Positions 17,704 through 24,371 of a stretch of 64,000 nucleotides of DNA are shown here, piece after piece. Every line of letters begins with the position of its first letter. The first letter of the stretch is position 1. Where the stretch lies: contig JAOZIF010000136.1 in the NCBI GenBank assembly GCA_026014495.1, forward strand, positions 3,886 through 67,885, in the 5' to 3' direction. This DNA comes from Candidatus Bathyarchaeum sp. GTDB lineage: Archaea; Thermoproteota; Bathyarchaeia; Bathyarchaeales; Bathyarchaeaceae. The notes below the pieces were generated by a model. It was not told the origin of the DNA. It ran no database searches and saw only the letters and a program-made list of their open reading frames with translations. Both the position numbers and the translations under genes were made by a program.

Positions 17704-18522
17704 ATGAAGACTCAGGATGTTCGTGTTCTTGTTATGCGGGTTGGTGGAACAAACTGTGACGCCGAAACCCAACGAGCCTTCACTGAATTGGGCGCACAGG
17801 CACAGGTGCTTCATTTCAACGAAGTAATAAAAAATCACAGCATTCTAGACTATAACGCGCTTGTGTTTCCGGGCGGATTCTCGTACGGCGACTACGTTAG
17901 GGCTGGAGCAATCTGGGCAACAGGAACCCTAACTAAACTACGTAAAGACCTCAAAGAGTTCGTTGAACAAGAACGACCAATTCTGGGCATCTGCAACGGC
18001 TTCCAAGTATTAGTCGAAGCAGGGCTGCTACCTGCCTTTAATGGAATAAGCGAATACCCAAAAGCAACTTTGGCAACTAACATTCCAATTGGTTACCGCT
18101 GCAAATGGGTTTACCTTAAGCACGAGAACTCTGGAAACTGCATATTCACCAAAAACATACCCAAAAACAAGGTCATGCATATACCCGTAGCTCACGGCGA
18201 GGGACGTTTCTTGTTTGCAAAAGAAAACGAAAAACGTTACCTGCAAAAACTCTACGACAACGACCAACTAGTCTTTAGATACTGCACAAAAGACGGTGAC
18301 TACCCAAACGGAGAATTTCCAGTCAACCCCAACGGAGCATTCCACGACATAGCAGGCATCTGCAACCCACAGGGAACAGTTTTTGGCTTAATGCCACACC
18401 CAGAAAGAGCCTTTTACGGCTGGCAGTTGCCTGACTGGGCAAAAACCGAGCAAGCGCCAACGTTTGGAGACGGAAAACTGGTCTTCGAATCCATGATTGA
18501 TTATTTGAAGAAACGGTTCTAG
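17704..18522 (+). CDS. purQ: Phosphoribosylformylglycinamidine synthase I (glutaminase subunit)
   Basis: 272 aa. GFSYGDY, the catalytic GICNGFQ and MPHPER motifs are present. Confidence 0.9.
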   Translation: MKTQDVRVLVMRVGGTNCDAETQRAFTELGAQAQVLHFNEVIKNHSILDYNALVFPGGFSYGDYVRAGAIWATGTLTKLRKDLKEFVEQERPILGICNGFQVLVEAGLLPAFNGISEYPKATLATNIPIGYRCKWVYLKHENSGNCIFTKNIPKNKVMHIPVAHGEGRFLFAKENEKRYLQKLYDNDQLVFRYCTKDGDYPNGEFPVNPNGAFHDIAGICNPQGTVFGLMPHPERAFYGWQLPDWAKTEQAPTFGDGKLVFESMIDYLKKRF

Positions 18523-19424
18523 ATGGCTTTCAGGTCAGCTAATCTGGGTAGCCCTGTTCTGGCGCCAATCTTTGAGACACAGCGGGACGCAACAAAGTTT
18601 CCCAGCTTTCCACAATCAAACAAGTCCATTCCTTTGGCTAACCCGTAAATGAATCCTGCATCAAAAGCGTCTCCTGCACCTGTTGTGTCCACAACATCAA
18701 CCTTGTATGCTTCAATTGTGTGACTCTCTTTTCCGTCAGTAACATAGCAGCCCCACTTGCCACGTTTAACAGCAACCAACTTTGCGCCCAAATCCATGAA
18801 CGTCAACGCCCCTTCCTTGTAATCTTGTCCTGTAAGCAACTTAACTTCCAGTTCGTTAGGAAGAACAACAAAGCTTCGTTTTATTATCGGCTTTAGCTCA
18901 TCTAAACCCTTTTTTGCATATATTGCTCCGGGGTCAAAACAGACTTTCACGTTCTGAAGCCTAGTTATGAGCTGCTTTTGGGCATCAAAGGGCTTTTGTG
19001 CAACAAACGACGACAAATGCAAAAACTTTGCGCCAGAAAAATACTCCAAATCAACTTCGTCAAAGTCTACCTGATTGTTGACTCCAGCATCAACGTAGAG
19101 TGCCCGATCGCCGTTCTGGTCGATGTATCCCATGACCTTGCCGCTTCTGCCCATTTTTGTAACTGTTATTCCGTTGACGTCAACGCCCTCTTCTCTCAGT
19201 TCGTCTAAGAGGAATTTTCCTTCCATGTCAGAGGCAACCTTTCCAACAAACCCTGTCTTGAGTCCGAGCCTAGCCAGACCCACGATTGTGTTTGCTGCTG
19301 AACCTCCGCCAGAAATCTTAAGGTCAGTGACAAAACCTTCCTCTTCCCTTTTGGCTATCATGTTAACCTTGAAGAGCTTGTCCAAGTTGAGGGCACCAAA
19401 ACCTACGGCATCAAAATCCATCAA
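18519..19424 (-). CDS. PfkB-family carbohydrate/nucleoside kinase
   Basis: 301 aa. GGGSAANT and DTTGAGDAF are the ribokinase-family signatures. The gene overlaps the upstream Ftr-like gene by 4 nt. Confidence 0.8.
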   Translation of the reverse strand: MMDFDAVGFGALNLDKLFKVNMIAKREEEGFVTDLKISGGGSAANTIVGLARLGLKTGFVGKVASDMEGKFLLDELREEGVDVNGITVTKMGRSGKVMGYIDQNGDRALYVDAGVNNQVDFDEVDLEYFSGAKFLHLSSFVAQKPFDAQKQLITRLQNVKVCFDPGAIYAKKGLDELKPIIKRSFVVLPNELEVKLLTGQDYKEGALTFMDLGAKLVAVKRGKWGCYVTDGKESHTIEAYKVDVVDTTGAGDAFDAGFIYGLAKGMDLFDCGKLGNFVASRCVSKIGARTGLPRLADLKAI

Positions 19425-20338
19425 AACAGCCCCCGCAAACCTATCTTGTGTTTACCAAGTTTTCCGCCATAATTTCCTGCAGAAACACGGACAACGCCAT
19501 CAACAGCGCTTGCAGTTTGGATGCCCACCTTCATTGCTTGTTTAACTGCTTTCATTGATGTGCCATTGATTACAATTTCAGGAATATACTTTACGCCCAA
19601 CGGAACCTTAGAGCTTCTTCCCAACTTAGTCTTTAGGCTATGACAGTACGGATGGTTCGTGGTAGGGCCAATCAACGGAAACCGTGTTTCAGGCTTTGAA
19701 CCCGCAGAGCAAACATCAAACGGAGTTACCACACCCTCAACTTGGTGTATGGCATCTAGCGCCTTTTTTCCAGCTTCCATAACTGCCCGTTTGGTTTTGC
19801 ACATAAACCAGAAATTGGCGCCCATAACTCCCCTTGCGTAACCCAGCTCGTTTTCTATCAAAAAATTAGAGACCATCAAAGGAACAACAATCAACTCTCT
19901 TCCGTAACGCTCTTCTGTCCACTCGTAGCCATCTCCACAGTGACCAACCCGCTCCATCATCCCAATCTTGCCCTCAGACTTAGGAAGCGCATCAAAAACA
20001 GCAGTGAACGGCTTCACCAAAATGTCTTGCCGTAGCCTAAACGACAACTCTGCCTCAAACTTTTTCAGTGAACTTTCTAGGGGCTTGTTTTCGTCGATGC
20101 CGCCCCAAAACTGCAAAATTACGCCTTCTCGTTTGTCTGGCGTTTCTTGTTTGTTTAGGTATTTTTCGATGCCGCCTTCTGTTCTGCCGATTACTATTGC
20201 AGGCGTGGCTGTTGCCTGTTGTGCAGCTTTACATAAAACTTCAATATGGCCTGCGGTGACTATGACTCTGGAATATAATCCGTCGAAAGCTTCCGCGTAG
20301 GTATCTTCGATTTCGGCTTTCATAATGTCCCCCTTCAT
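19421..20338 (-). CDS. ftr: Formylmethanofuran:tetrahydromethanopterin formyltransferase family protein (Ftr or Ftr paralog)
   Basis: 305 aa. EIEDTYAEAF, ETPD, GDGY, EIVINGTS and VSAGNYGGKLGKHKIGLRGLF are collinear with M. kandleri Ftr as I recall it. Confidence 0.85.
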   Translation of the reverse strand: MKGDIMKAEIEDTYAEAFDGLYSRVIVTAGHIEVLCKAAQQATATPAIVIGRTEGGIEKYLNKQETPDKREGVILQFWGGIDENKPLESSLKKFEAELSFRLRQDILVKPFTAVFDALPKSEGKIGMMERVGHCGDGYEWTEERYGRELIVVPLMVSNFLIENELGYARGVMGANFWFMCKTKRAVMEAGKKALDAIHQVEGVVTPFDVCSAGSKPETRFPLIGPTTNHPYCHSLKTKLGRSSKVPLGVKYIPEIVINGTSMKAVKQAMKVGIQTASAVDGVVRVSAGNYGGKLGKHKIGLRGLF

Positions 20339-22857: not shown

Positions 22858-22883
22858 TAAGGCTCACCATAACATATGATTGG

Positions 22884-24371
22884 TTATTTTACGGAAGATT
22901 CGTATATTCTTCCTTTTTCGCTGTAACCGTTCTCGAATCTTTCTTTCATTTCGTCAGCCAACTTTTGGGCTAACGGGGTTGGATACTTGCCTGTAATACA
23001 ACCCAGACACAGGTTTTGTTTGTCTAAGCCTGTTGCTTTAACTAGGCCATCAACGGACTGGTAGTTCACGGCGTCTGCGCCCACGATTTCGGCGATTTCT
23101 TCTGCGTCGTGTTGTGAGCCTATTAGTTCACGGTAGGTTGCCATGTCTACGCCGTAGAAGCAGGGTCCGATGATTCTGGGGAATGTGATGAAGAGGTATA
23201 CTTTTTTTGCGCCCATTTTGCGTAGTTTGGTGACTACGACTTTGGTTGTGTCGCCTCTGACTATGCTGTCGTCTACTACTGCGACGTTTTTTCCTGCGAG
23301 TTTGTGGTCTACGATGTTGATTTTTCGGTCTATTGTGTTGTATCTTTGGTCTGAGAGTAGAATAAAGGCTCGTTCTGCGACGTATCTGTGGCGTCTTGAG
23401 GCTCTTTCCCATCTTATGCCTGTTAATTCGTGGTATCCGTAGGCTGCGTCGTTTCCTGTTTCGGGCATGGACATTATAATGTCCACTTTGCTTGTGGTTT
23501 CAGGGTATTCCCATGCAAAGTTTCTGCCAAACTCTTCTCTAACTTCATACACGTATCTGTTTCCTAGTCTTGAGTCTGGTCGGGCAAAGTATGCGAATTC
23601 GAATGCGCATAGTGCGTGTCTTTCTCCAGGGCATAGTTGTTTTCTTTCGAAGCCGTCTTTTTTGGCGACTACAAGTTCGCCTGGGTTTACTTCAAAGTTG
23701 AAGTCAAAACTGTTTATGTCAAGGCCCACGGTTTCTGATGATACGGCGCAGGTTGTTCCGTTTTTGCTGCAGCCGCAGCATAGGGGCCTTATTCCTTGTG
23801 GGTCTCTGAAGGCAAAGAGTTCTCCTTTTTCTGTCATTCCAGCGACGGAGAAGGCGCCTTCGATTTCTTTCATGCACCGTTTTACTGAGGAGGCTAGGTC
23901 GCCGTCTTTTGTTTGTCTTAGGAGTTTTCTGGAGATTAGTTCTGCGTCGTAGTTGAATCGAAAGTTTGGGGTTTCTTCTTGTATTTCTTTTATTATGTCA
24001 GGCGTGTTGACGACGTTGCCGTTGAAGGCGATTGCTATTTGTTTTTCTCCTCGTTTTTCCATGATTGGTTGGGTGCTTTTTACTAGTGACTCGTAGTCTG
24101 TTCCGCCAGATGTTGAGTATCTGACGTGTCCCAATCCTACAGATCCAGGAAGTTCTGTTAGCCATTTTTGGATTTCTTCCTTTTTTACTTTGGGAACAAG
24201 GTCCAAGCCTTTTTGGCTGTGGAATGTTCCGTCGTATGTTAAGAATCCGTGGGATTGGTGGCCGCGGTGGTTTTGGGATCGCAGTCCCCAGTATATGTAG
24301 GGGAAGACTGGTTTGTTTGTGAAGTCTTGTGCTGCGAAAACCCCGCATGCCTCTTTTAACTGTTCGAGCAT
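22884..24371 (-). CDS. purF: Amidophosphoribosyltransferase
   Basis: 495 aa. N-terminal nucleophile context EACGVFAA, the PRTase loop VAVVDDSIVRGDT and C-terminal Cys ligands are present. Confidence 0.9.
   Translation of the reverse strand: MLEQLKEACGVFAAQDFTNKPVFPYIYWGLRSQNHRGHQSHGFLTYDGTFHSQKGLDLVPKVKKEEIQKWLTELPGSVGLGHVRYSTSGGTDYESLVKSTQPIMEKRGEKQIAIAFNGNVVNTPDIIKEIQEETPNFRFNYDAELISRKLLRQTKDGDLASSVKRCMKEIEGAFSVAGMTEKGELFAFRDPQGIRPLCCGCSKNGTTCAVSSETVGLDINSFDFNFEVNPGELVVAKKDGFERKQLCPGERHALCAFEFAYFARPDSRLGNRYVYEVREEFGRNFAWEYPETTSKVDIIMSMPETGNDAAYGYHELTGIRWERASRRHRYVAERAFILLSDQRYNTIDRKINIVDHKLAGKNVAVVDDSIVRGDTTKVVVTKLRKMGAKKVYLFITFPRIIGPCFYGVDMATYRELIGSQHDAEEIAEIVGADAVNYQSVDGLVKATGLDKQNLCLGCITGKYPTPLAQKLADEMKERFENGYSEKGRIYESSVK

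Follow-up and report, generated by a model that had tools for sequence, protein, structure and literature searches.

The purine genes of a Bathyarchaeia genome raise the question of which enzyme formylates glycinamide ribonucleotide (GAR) in this organism. In the 64,000-nucleotide stretch of DNA analysed here (hereafter the window; Candidatus Bathyarchaeum sp., assembly GCA_026014495.1, contig JAOZIF010000136.1, positions 3,886 to 67,885), steps 1, 2, 4 and 5 of de novo purine synthesis are encoded by two converging sets of genes, and neither PurN nor PurT is encoded for step 3, the conversion of GAR to formylglycinamide ribonucleotide (FGAR). Within the same unit as purF and purD there is, in addition, a gene for a paralog of the formyltransferase Ftr, which we refer to as Ftr2. 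Judging from sequence comparisons, we consider it quite likely that Ftr2 is the GAR formyltransferase of its host, and thus a third solution to step 3, non-homologous to PurN and PurT, that would take its formyl group from tetrahydromethanopterin (H4MPT) or methanofuran (MFR). The genes in question are the following.

22884–24371, minus strand: purF, amidophosphoribosyltransferase, step 1, first gene of the unit (TIGR01134, 328 bits; GATase_7/GATase_6)
21448–22857, minus strand: purD, GAR synthetase, step 2, of a divergent "Bathy type" (GARS_N/A/C; TIGR00877, 247 bits)
20342–21448, minus strand: EhaR-like HAD-fold protein, 368 amino acids (aa) (weak HAD matches in Pfam and NCBIfam; HAD motifs)
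19421–20338, minus strand: Ftr2, the EhaS-like Ftr paralog, 305 aa (PF01913 and PF02741; NF002554, 334 bits)
18519–19424, minus strand: EhaT-like PfkB kinase of the ribokinase family, 301 aa, last gene of the unit (PF00294, 177 bits)
13597–14685, plus strand: purM, aminoimidazole ribonucleotide synthetase, step 5, first gene of the convergent pur unit (TIGR00878, 266 bits, above cut-off)
15056–15328, plus strand: purS, formylglycinamidine ribonucleotide (FGAM) synthase subunit, step 4 (TIGR00302, 69.6 bits, above cut-off)
15325–17700, plus strand: purL, FGAM synthase subunit, step 4, which uses the FGAR from step 3 (TIGR01736, 684 bits)
17704–18522, plus strand: purQ, glutaminase subunit of FGAM synthase (NF002252, 312 bits)

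A preliminary description of the locus had reported the five minus-strand genes as tightly packed and convergent with purM-purS-purL-purQ, and the coordinates of the open reading frames (ORFs) prove exact, with no gap longer than 26 nucleotides (nt). In particular, purF and purD are 26 nt apart, purD and the HAD gene overlap by 1 nt, the HAD gene and ftr2 are separated by 3 nt, and ftr2 and the PfkB gene overlap by 4 nt; the stop codons of the PfkB gene and of purQ overlap by 4 nt as well (18519–18522). Every pur assignment, and with it the presence of steps 1, 2, 4 and 5, is backed by both Pfam and NCBIfam. PurF retains its catalytic Cys in an N-terminal EACGVF motif, and the score of PurD lies below the 288-bit cut-off of TIGR00877, as is typical of relatives that carry the trio of HAD, Ftr2 and PfkB genes. 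No hydrogenase genes are present in the unit; the neighbors of the trio are purF, purD and purQ.

The host assembly is a Bathyarchaeia (Thermoproteota) metagenome-assembled genome (MAG) of 2.19 Mb in 196 contigs, estimated to be 93% complete. Neither in the window nor in the whole of this assembly is there a match to PurN (PF00551, Formyl_trans_N) or a PurT, the lone weak match to PurT (28 bits) being an MfnD-like ATP-grasp protein encoded beside MfnF. The same is true of the close relatives of the host genome, in which no PF00551 match and no PurT were found either. Thus, the absence of PurN and PurT noted earlier for the window extends to the assembly, and no purN or purT elsewhere in it relieves the need for another enzyme. 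Ftr2 shows no homology to PurN (PF00551) or PurT (TIGR01142) and matches Ftr families only.

Ftr2 contains both lobes of the Ftr fold, the distal one (PF01913, 145.7 bits) and the proximal one (PF02741, FTR_C, 185.3 bits), and it is 36–39% identical over full-length alignments to the archaeal Ftr enzymes of solved structure (EC 2.3.1.101; 1FTR/2FHJ, 1M5H and 1M5S; the bacterial member of the family is FhcD, 6S6Y), with which it shares the two-lobe fold family and about 28 core positions. The catalytic Glu is retained: E254, within the motif IPEIVING, aligns with the YEIVING of 1FTR (Glu245 of Methanopyrus kandleri Ftr), and the residue is conserved in both the Ftr1 and the Ftr2 clades. In M. 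kandleri Ftr, and in FhcD, where it is Glu252, this residue stabilizes the oxyanion (PMC6926001). By analogy, formyl transfer between amines is the chemistry to be expected of Ftr2, with the difference that the acceptor proposed here is GAR and those of Ftr are methanofuran or H4MPT.

These likenesses leave room for a different explanation, namely that Ftr2 is a second isoenzyme of the one-carbon (C1) pathway, suited to another methanofuran or pterin variant or to another regulatory state, with its position among pur genes securing flux of C1 units or formyl-H4MPT and with some other protein acting as the GAR transformylase. Retention of both lobes, of the catalytic Glu and of many core residues is what such an isoenzyme would display, and Ftr2 passes the cut-off of the broad NCBIfam subfamily model NF002554 (334 against 297 bits). 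It fails, however, the cut-off of the C1-pathway equivalog TIGR03119 (231 against 292.6 bits), and it has invariant residues of its own: C134 (Phe in Ftr1), P225 (Ala in Ftr1), R52 and W177, with C210 likewise invariant within the Ftr2 clade, and a 9-residue insertion relative to Ftr. Moreover, the host genome carries two Ftr genes, the window copy (147 bits to PF01913) and a canonical Ftr1 on contig C59 (186 bits), so that the window gene is not the sole orthologous Ftr of the C1 pathway. A true Ftr1 gene adjoins mtd and fwd, in contrast to ftr2, which is encoded in a purine operon and not with fwd, mtd or mch.

That this copy might belong to a distinct paralog clade had been suggested from the outset, and both a tree and profile scores separate the two kinds of protein. 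A search of 1.8 billion cluster representatives yielded 553 Ftr-family clusters, and a tree of 55 full-length sequences places the window protein in an 11-member clade (87 by the Shimodaira–Hasegawa-like approximate likelihood-ratio test, SH-aLRT), which is parted by a branch with an SH-aLRT value of 98 from the group that contains the host's own Ftr1. A profile built for the Ftr2 clade gives at least 424 bits for Ftr2 orthologs and at most 272 bits for Ftr1. (P0130, a protein with 43% identity that was considered as an extra Ftr2, was rejected as a canonical Ftr1 encoded beside mtd and fwd.) Given these differences, and others that appear below, we regard the isoenzyme explanation as very improbable.

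We compared 80 loci, each from a different Bathyarchaeia species, in which Ftr2 is 68–81% identical; the search for related loci yielded Bathyarchaeia only. (Here and below, G, C, L and f precede our numbers for genomes, contigs, loci and families.) The order purF-purD-HAD-Ftr2-PfkB is found in nearly every locus with enough flanking sequence, usually convergent with purQ-L-S-M. At two loci (L079 and L082) purM-S-L-Q continue on the same strand, such that the trio lies between step 2 and steps 4 and 5. The five-gene order also occurs in the more distant families f13, f15, f53, f54 and f55, and it holds where PurD is of the canonical kind (G244). Its recurrence in about 80 species indicates that the arrangement is more than chance, and bears out the expectation that the linkage of the trio with pur genes would be conserved in other genomes.

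Two samples show how Ftr2 is distributed relative to PurN and PurT, one of 201 Thermoproteota genomes at least 85% complete, of which 137 are PurD-positive, and one of 151 Bathyarchaeia genomes at least 90% complete, of which 133 are PurD-positive.

Thermoproteota, 137 PurD-positive genomes: Ftr2 in 22, PurT-like in 45, PF00551 in 67; Ftr2 together with PurN or PurT in 0; none of the three in 4
Bathyarchaeia, 133 PurD-positive genomes: Ftr2 in 61, PurT-like in 9, PF00551 in 59; Ftr2 together with PurN or PurT in 1 (G293); none of the three in 5

The co-occurrence statistics called for in the preliminary description thus give an overlap of Ftr2 with PurN or PurT of 0/22 in Thermoproteota and 1/61 in Bathyarchaeia, and Ftr2 and PurT are found together in none of 350 genomes. 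In the Thermoproteota sample a PurT-like and a PF00551 gene coexist in G060 only, and of its 64 genomes without PurD just 5 encode one or more of the three enzymes; in the Bathyarchaeia sample G293 is the only PurD-positive genome with two of the three. Note that for some of the genomes with none of the three the apparent lack of Ftr2 is an assembly artefact, as the assembled sequence breaks off within the HAD or Ftr2 gene or shortly behind it: the contig of G029, one of the four such Thermoproteota genomes, stops inside Ftr2, and those of G336 and G321, two of the five such Bathyarchaeia genomes, stop at the HAD gene just past purD. Related genomes also differ in the solution that they use. 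Family f13 includes all three, with Ftr2 in G066, a PurT-like gene in five genomes and PurN in G257; in family f55 three genomes have Ftr2 and one a PurN-like gene; and families f14, f47, f49, f50, f51 and f60 have PurN or PurT. Furthermore, G034, which is 98% complete, is without PurD, Ftr2 and the HAD protein and retains Ftr1. Were Ftr2 a second C1-pathway isoenzyme, neither its mutual exclusion with PurN and PurT nor its joint loss with PurD from a genome that keeps Ftr1 would be explained.

The PurT-like class that scores 225–265 bits was considered as PurK and this assignment was rejected, since these proteins score three times higher to PurT and contain the PurT_C domain. A further set of purD-adjacent PurT-like ORFs of about 470 aa, seen in f50 (G238:C53, G265:C12 and G281:C9) and also in f36, f41 and f19, matches only the N-terminal 225–233 residues of the PurT model (295–330 bits) and has a different C-terminal half.

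The position directly after purD is of particular interest, because in Bathyarchaeia it is occupied by PurN (about 19 genomes), by a PurT-like gene (4 genomes) or by HAD-Ftr2-PfkB. PurD itself varies with this choice. The divergent Bathy type (223–281 bits, below the TIGR00877 cut-off) is almost always found beside the HAD gene, whereas canonical PurD (300–500 bits) accompanies PurN or PurT, the exception being G244, in which canonical PurD is combined with the trio. One genome of family f55, G245, has on a single strand the genes purF-purD-PurN-like-HAD-PfkB-FolD (L118, C17:10000–24000), an arrangement that we call cassette B, and its family mates have purF-purD-HAD-Ftr2-PfkB (L125). Two f14 genomes (G074 and G104) have purF-purD-PurN-like, the PurN-like protein being 278–299 aa long, with HAD, PfkB and FolD together at a second locus. 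(The f14 HAD matches seemed to contain an in-frame TAA, but this lies ahead of the start, where the alignment had overrun; the ORF itself is intact.) The PurD and HAD proteins of cassette B each group together (support values of 98 and 99, respectively) and are nested within the Ftr2-type radiation, which indicates a single origin of cassette B out of the Ftr2 cassette, followed by its spread. Comparison of G245 with the Ftr2 cassettes indicates in turn that Ftr2 was exchanged for a PurN-like protein plus FolD, that is, for a transformylase plus the maker of its folate-bound donor; the host genome, with Ftr2, has no FolD and no PurN-like gene. No other single argument speaks as strongly for Ftr2 as a transformylase fed by a donor from the H4MPT/MFR pathway as this exchange within the operon, which the isoenzyme explanation also leaves unexplained. 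Because the HAD and PfkB genes persist when the PurN-like gene replaces Ftr2, the role of transformylase can be matched to Ftr2 alone.

The PurN-like protein of cassette B can be aligned with PurN over no more than the catalytic core (model positions of about 46–171). Its N-terminal, GAR-phosphate-binding part is unrecognizable, as is also the case at L103/L104 and L114/L115, which may mean an altered acceptor or cofactor.

The exchange could be read differently if Ftr2 supplied formate, as PurU does when it feeds PurT in Escherichia coli. Formate would then be used by an unrecognised formate-dependent GAR ligase and by PurP, and the PurN-like protein with FolD would amount to a PurU-like deformylase. 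Archaeal purine synthesis is known to need formate, the second-best matches of the PurN-like proteins are PurU deformylases (38–43 bits), and at 278–330 aa they are of PurU size; the HAD and PfkB proteins, constant beside either enzyme, could on this account serve a downstream step. The PurN-like proteins nevertheless score higher to PurN (51–77 bits) than to PurU, and a formate supplier should accompany PurT, with which Ftr2 never occurs. Ftr-family proteins are, moreover, transferases, and in the Fhc complex hydrolysis requires the separate FhcA subunit (PMC6926001). Finally, no candidate ligase was found in the host genome, where the only ATP-grasp match is the MfnD-like protein. We therefore consider formate supply by Ftr2 unlikely.

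Compared with PurN and PurT, then, the proposed GAR formyltransferase Ftr2 has the same position in the pathway and in the operon, after purD, and would make the same product, FGAR, but bears no sequence or fold relationship to either. The donors differ also, PurN using 10-formyl-tetrahydrofolate, PurT formate and ATP, and Ftr2, as we propose, H4MPT- or MFR-bound formyl. A further difference is that Ftr2 always has a HAD phosphatase and a PfkB kinase alongside.

In the HAD-like protein the DCEGP and GDSITD motifs first noticed in the window sequence are present and are invariant among relatives; all four HAD motifs are kept, and across 15 diverse sequences D16-x-E18-G-P, S115-T116, K220 and G242-D-S-I-T-D247 do not vary, with motif I having Glu at +2 instead of Asp. 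An AlphaFold2 model of the protein (pLDDT, the predicted local distance difference test score, 93.7) matches 1y8a best in Foldseek (template modelling (TM) score 0.78), followed by SerB-type phosphatases. The 1Y8A structure is that of AF1437 from Archaeoglobus fulgidus, a structural-genomics "hypothetical protein" homologous to the HAD-like protein (E = 1e-27; TM 0.78/0.91) and likewise containing the DxEGP motif. From its sequence and predicted structure, the HAD-like protein is probably a phosphatase of the phosphoserine-phosphatase-like HAD-IB type. The PfkB protein scores 160 bits against a cut-off of 300 for ribokinase and 130–143 bits against 330–500 for ribose-1-phosphate kinases in NCBIfam, far below all of these cut-offs, and its best match in the PDB is to the YdjH/ribokinase family.

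The two proteins accompany two unusual transformylases, Ftr2 and the PurN-like protein, and their constancy beside either one suggests that their probable role is on the ribosyl or acceptor side, or else in providing a shared precursor. We speculate that they could provide a dephosphorylate-formylate-rephosphorylate route through glycinamide riboside; ribose-phosphate or serine/glycine supply is another possibility. Taken further, the HAD and PfkB proteins might be the true unit and Ftr2 a partner, working on a ribose-phosphate or cofactor intermediate in the supply of ribose-5-phosphate/phosphoribosyl pyrophosphate (PRPP), in that of serine/glycine or in a step of H4MPT or methanofuran biosynthesis, the link to purines being one of precursor supply. 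The pair does stay together with or without Ftr2, the PfkB protein resembles ribokinase and ribose-1-phosphate kinases, and the HAD fold is nearest to phosphoserine phosphatases. H4MPT synthesis, as is generally known, uses PRPP, and an Ftr2 gene of an Aenigmarchaeota genome adjoins genes for PRPP synthase and another HAD protein. Such a role may hold for the HAD and PfkB proteins, but the complementarity of Ftr2 with PurN and PurT would be unaccounted for, and more than 80 genomes whose pur clusters are otherwise intact would have no enzyme for step 3. Furthermore, two PurT-type genomes (G042 and G149) have no ortholog of either the HAD or the PfkB protein and yet keep Mch, Ftr1 and MfnB, which indicates that the pair is not needed for making H4MPT or MFR. 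As an account of Ftr2 we thus find precursor supply quite improbable.

Related genes are present outside Bathyarchaeia. The Methanothermobacter eha operon closes, at its 3′ end, with three genes that do not encode hydrogenase, EhaR, EhaS and EhaT (Tersteegen and Hedderich 1999, as reported in PMC3087415). Of these, EhaS is annotated as Ftr and EhaT as a ribokinase; both are transcribed together with eha, and neither has been given a role (Kaster 2011, PMC3087415). The Joint Genome Institute name for relatives of the HAD-like protein is "energy-converting hydrogenase A subunit R". In the tree of Chadwick 2022 (S1 Data, Fig04E) the Bathyarchaeota BA2 protein 17395251 is sister to the Methanobacteriales Ftr2 sequences with 0.998 support. 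The Ftr2 of locus L013 (BA2) is identical to this protein and 73% identical to the window protein, and the gene order at L013 is purF-purD-HAD-Ftr2-PfkB. The window gene therefore belongs to the EhaS/Ftr2 clade, and the eha trio of HAD-like, second Ftr and ribokinase-like genes named in the preliminary description is real. The likeness extends to all three genes, an EhaR-like HAD protein, an Ftr paralog and a ribokinase-like PfkB protein, which are of the same families and in the same order, and the Ftr paralogs of both settings form one clade with the signature motifs HCGDG, DICSAxSKPET, IGPTTNHPYCPSL and IPEIVING. The difference is one of context: the eha copies have been taken as hydrogenase subunits, whereas the Bathyarchaeia trio follows purF-purD without hydrogenase genes nearby. 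This context argues that the eha trio consists of soluble purine-pathway enzymes rather than hydrogenase subunits.

The transcription of the Methanothermobacter copy with a hydrogenase operon and not with pur genes (PMC3087415) would fit a C1-pathway isoenzyme, although in ANME (anaerobic methanotrophic archaea) transcriptomes it is Ftr1 that serves catabolism (Chadwick 2022). The co-transcription of EhaS with Eha, an anaplerotic supplier of formyl-MFR, would make sense if Ftr2 drains the formyl pool for biosynthesis. Eha is said, in work by Lie and colleagues from 2012, to replenish reduced ferredoxin for making formyl-MFR.

The distribution of the clade coincides with a gap noted in print. 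For two Archaeoglobi, four Methanobacteria and M. kandleri, the pathways of which are otherwise intact, Brown 2011 could identify neither purN nor purT, and Chadwick 2022 reported that ANME-1 is also without purN and purT and called the enzyme "as yet unidentified". The Ftr2 clade, for its part, is found in ANME-1, ANME-2a/b, Archaeoglobales, M. kandleri and Methanothermobacter marburgensis (Chadwick 2022). Hence the lineages reported to be without both enzymes (Methanobacteriales, Archaeoglobales, M. kandleri and ANME-1) are Ftr2 lineages. Neither Brown 2011 nor Chadwick 2022 connects the missing enzyme with the Ftr2 clade, and a search of the literature outside subscription journals found no paper that does. 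The Ftr2 family was already known as a paralog, and its assignment as a GAR formyltransferase appears to be new.

Among more distant members of the clade, one lies next to a PfkB gene and an EhaR-like gene (L087) and one lies near the adenylosuccinate lyase gene purB (L126/L127). At L086 a 368-aa ORF near Ftr2 was considered as EhaR and rejected, as it matches in length only and encodes an RFC-like AAA+ protein. The Aenigmarchaeota gene mentioned above (L085; MAG GCA_053938065.1, 8454–11651) has PRPP synthase upstream and a different, 224-aa HAD hydrolase directly downstream. The presence of Ftr2 at L085 is unexpected, since this is a DPANN lineage, usually thought to be without H4MPT/MFR metabolism and de novo purine synthesis.

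How might an Ftr-type enzyme formylate GAR? Ftr transfers a formyl group between amines by way of a tetrahedral oxyanion, in a reaction of 4.4 kJ/mol (PMC6926001). As Ftr2 retains the catalytic Glu, the same mechanism could be reused: an amine would attack the formamide carbon and the conserved, protonated Glu would stabilize the oxyanion, with the primary amine of GAR (R-CO-CH2-NH2) in place of the aminomethylfuran amine of methanofuran. It is the resemblance between these two amines that leads us to propose GAR as the acceptor. The equation would then read N5-formyl-H4MPT + GAR -> H4MPT + FGAR or, with the alternative donor, formyl-MFR + GAR -> MFR + FGAR. Such a transfer would be roughly thermoneutral, with the ATP-dependent PurL pulling it forward, and since the formyl group would stem from the cellular C1 pool on H4MPT/MFR, the step could do without folate and free formate. 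The activity, the donor and the direction of Ftr2 are in this sense what we infer.

As to the donor, four genomes from four families (G205, G346, G350 and G244; 94–100% complete) have Ftr2 and Mch and no detectable Ftr1 or MfnB, and may run Ftr2 without methanofuran. This is a weak hint that formyl-H4MPT is the donor. (The absence of MfnB is not a clean marker for the absence of methanofuran, as two genomes with Ftr1 are also without MfnB.) The same four genomes suit an isoenzyme as well, for in them Ftr2 could do the job of Ftr1. The H4MPT pool of Methanosphaera is filled from serine and that of Methanobrevibacter smithii from CO2. Purine C8 comes from acetate C2 in Methanosphaera stadtmanae and does not in M. 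smithii, according to the labelling data quoted in Brown 2011, and given how the two pools are filled both results fit a donor from the H4MPT pool.

Several points weigh against the assignment of GAR formylation to Ftr2. The support for it is comparative genomics throughout, and the argument across phyla rests on published data, the genome surveys having covered Thermoproteota. Co-occurrence of the alternatives is not nil: ANME-2a and ANME-2b carry both Ftr2 and PurN (Chadwick 2022), and G293, the sole such case among the 151 Bathyarchaeia genomes, has a PF00551 gene and a full purD-HAD-Ftr2-PfkB cluster. The PF00551 gene of G293 is part of a PurN-FolD-MTHFS (5-formyl-tetrahydrofolate cyclo-ligase) cassette on a separate 11-kb contig (L119, C191:1–6000), in a MAG with 4% contamination, and either contamination or true redundancy is possible. 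The Fisher p-values for the two samples (1e-21 and 1e-30) ignore kinship and so overstate the evidence, and the independent switches probably number only about four to six. The single origin of the PurN-like cassette limits the independent evidence from the exchange, and the PurN-like proteins of cassette B (278–330 aa), at 51–77 bits, are far from the 150-bit PurN cut-off and also resemble PurU. It is also possible that the invariable company of the HAD and PfkB proteins signals a chemistry other than the one proposed. Lastly, Brown 2011 states that formyl-H4MPT is "not believed to be functional as a formyl donor", the N10 form being meant. On balance, the observation of the locus is confirmed and its interpretation as a site of GAR formylation is supported.

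Other features of the window stand apart from these questions. A divergent archaeal S-adenosylmethionine synthetase is encoded upstream. The spacing between purM and purS is about 370 nt (14686–15055), unusually long for a packed cluster, and contains an antisense ORF of 89 aa (14677–14946, minus strand) with no Pfam match. Just upstream of the purM unit are adenylate kinase (11813–12457, minus strand) and aIF5B (9936–11714, minus strand), and an archaeal type IV pilus/archaellum ATPase with its membrane partner occupies 7269–9787. Between 26 and 30 kb there is a low-GC island (GC 0.35–0.36, compared with about 0.43 in the surroundings), probably acquired horizontally, that encodes a 1057-aa Eco57I/MmeI-like fused restriction-modification enzyme (26349–29522, minus strand). 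At 35549–36805 and 36807–38036, both on the minus strand, is a tandem pair of full-length paralogs of MoeA, the molybdopterin molybdenum/tungsten transferase.

The operon of Bathyarchaeia links the Ftr2 clade with the missing step-3 enzyme, and thereby provides a specific candidate, testable at little cost in genetically tractable organisms (Methanothermobacter and Methanococcus). Since 2011 several archaeal groups have been without a known GAR formyltransferase, and for this role Ftr2 is a strong candidate. We also think it fairly likely that Ftr2/EhaS constitutes an evolutionarily independent class of GAR formyltransferase, such that purine C8 would come directly from the methanogenic/Wood-Ljungdahl C1 carrier pool. 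If this is true, Methanobacteriales, Methanopyrales, Archaeoglobales, ANME-1 and most Bathyarchaeia would have their missing GAR transformylase; the EhaR, EhaS and EhaT "hydrogenase subunits" would be reassigned to purine biosynthesis, which would account for EhaS and EhaT within the operon of the anaplerotic Eha hydrogenase; and an accessory phosphatase/kinase pair acting on the ribosyl acceptor would be implied. The conflicting C8-labelling data from Methanosphaera and Methanobrevibacter would be reconciled. The annotation of thousands of "Ftr", "EhaR" and "ribokinase" genes would be corrected, together with the metabolic models built on them. De novo purine synthesis, a textbook pathway that is among the best known, would gain a new enzyme class, and formyl groups bound to H4MPT or MFR would, contrary to the usual assumption, feed biosynthesis directly.

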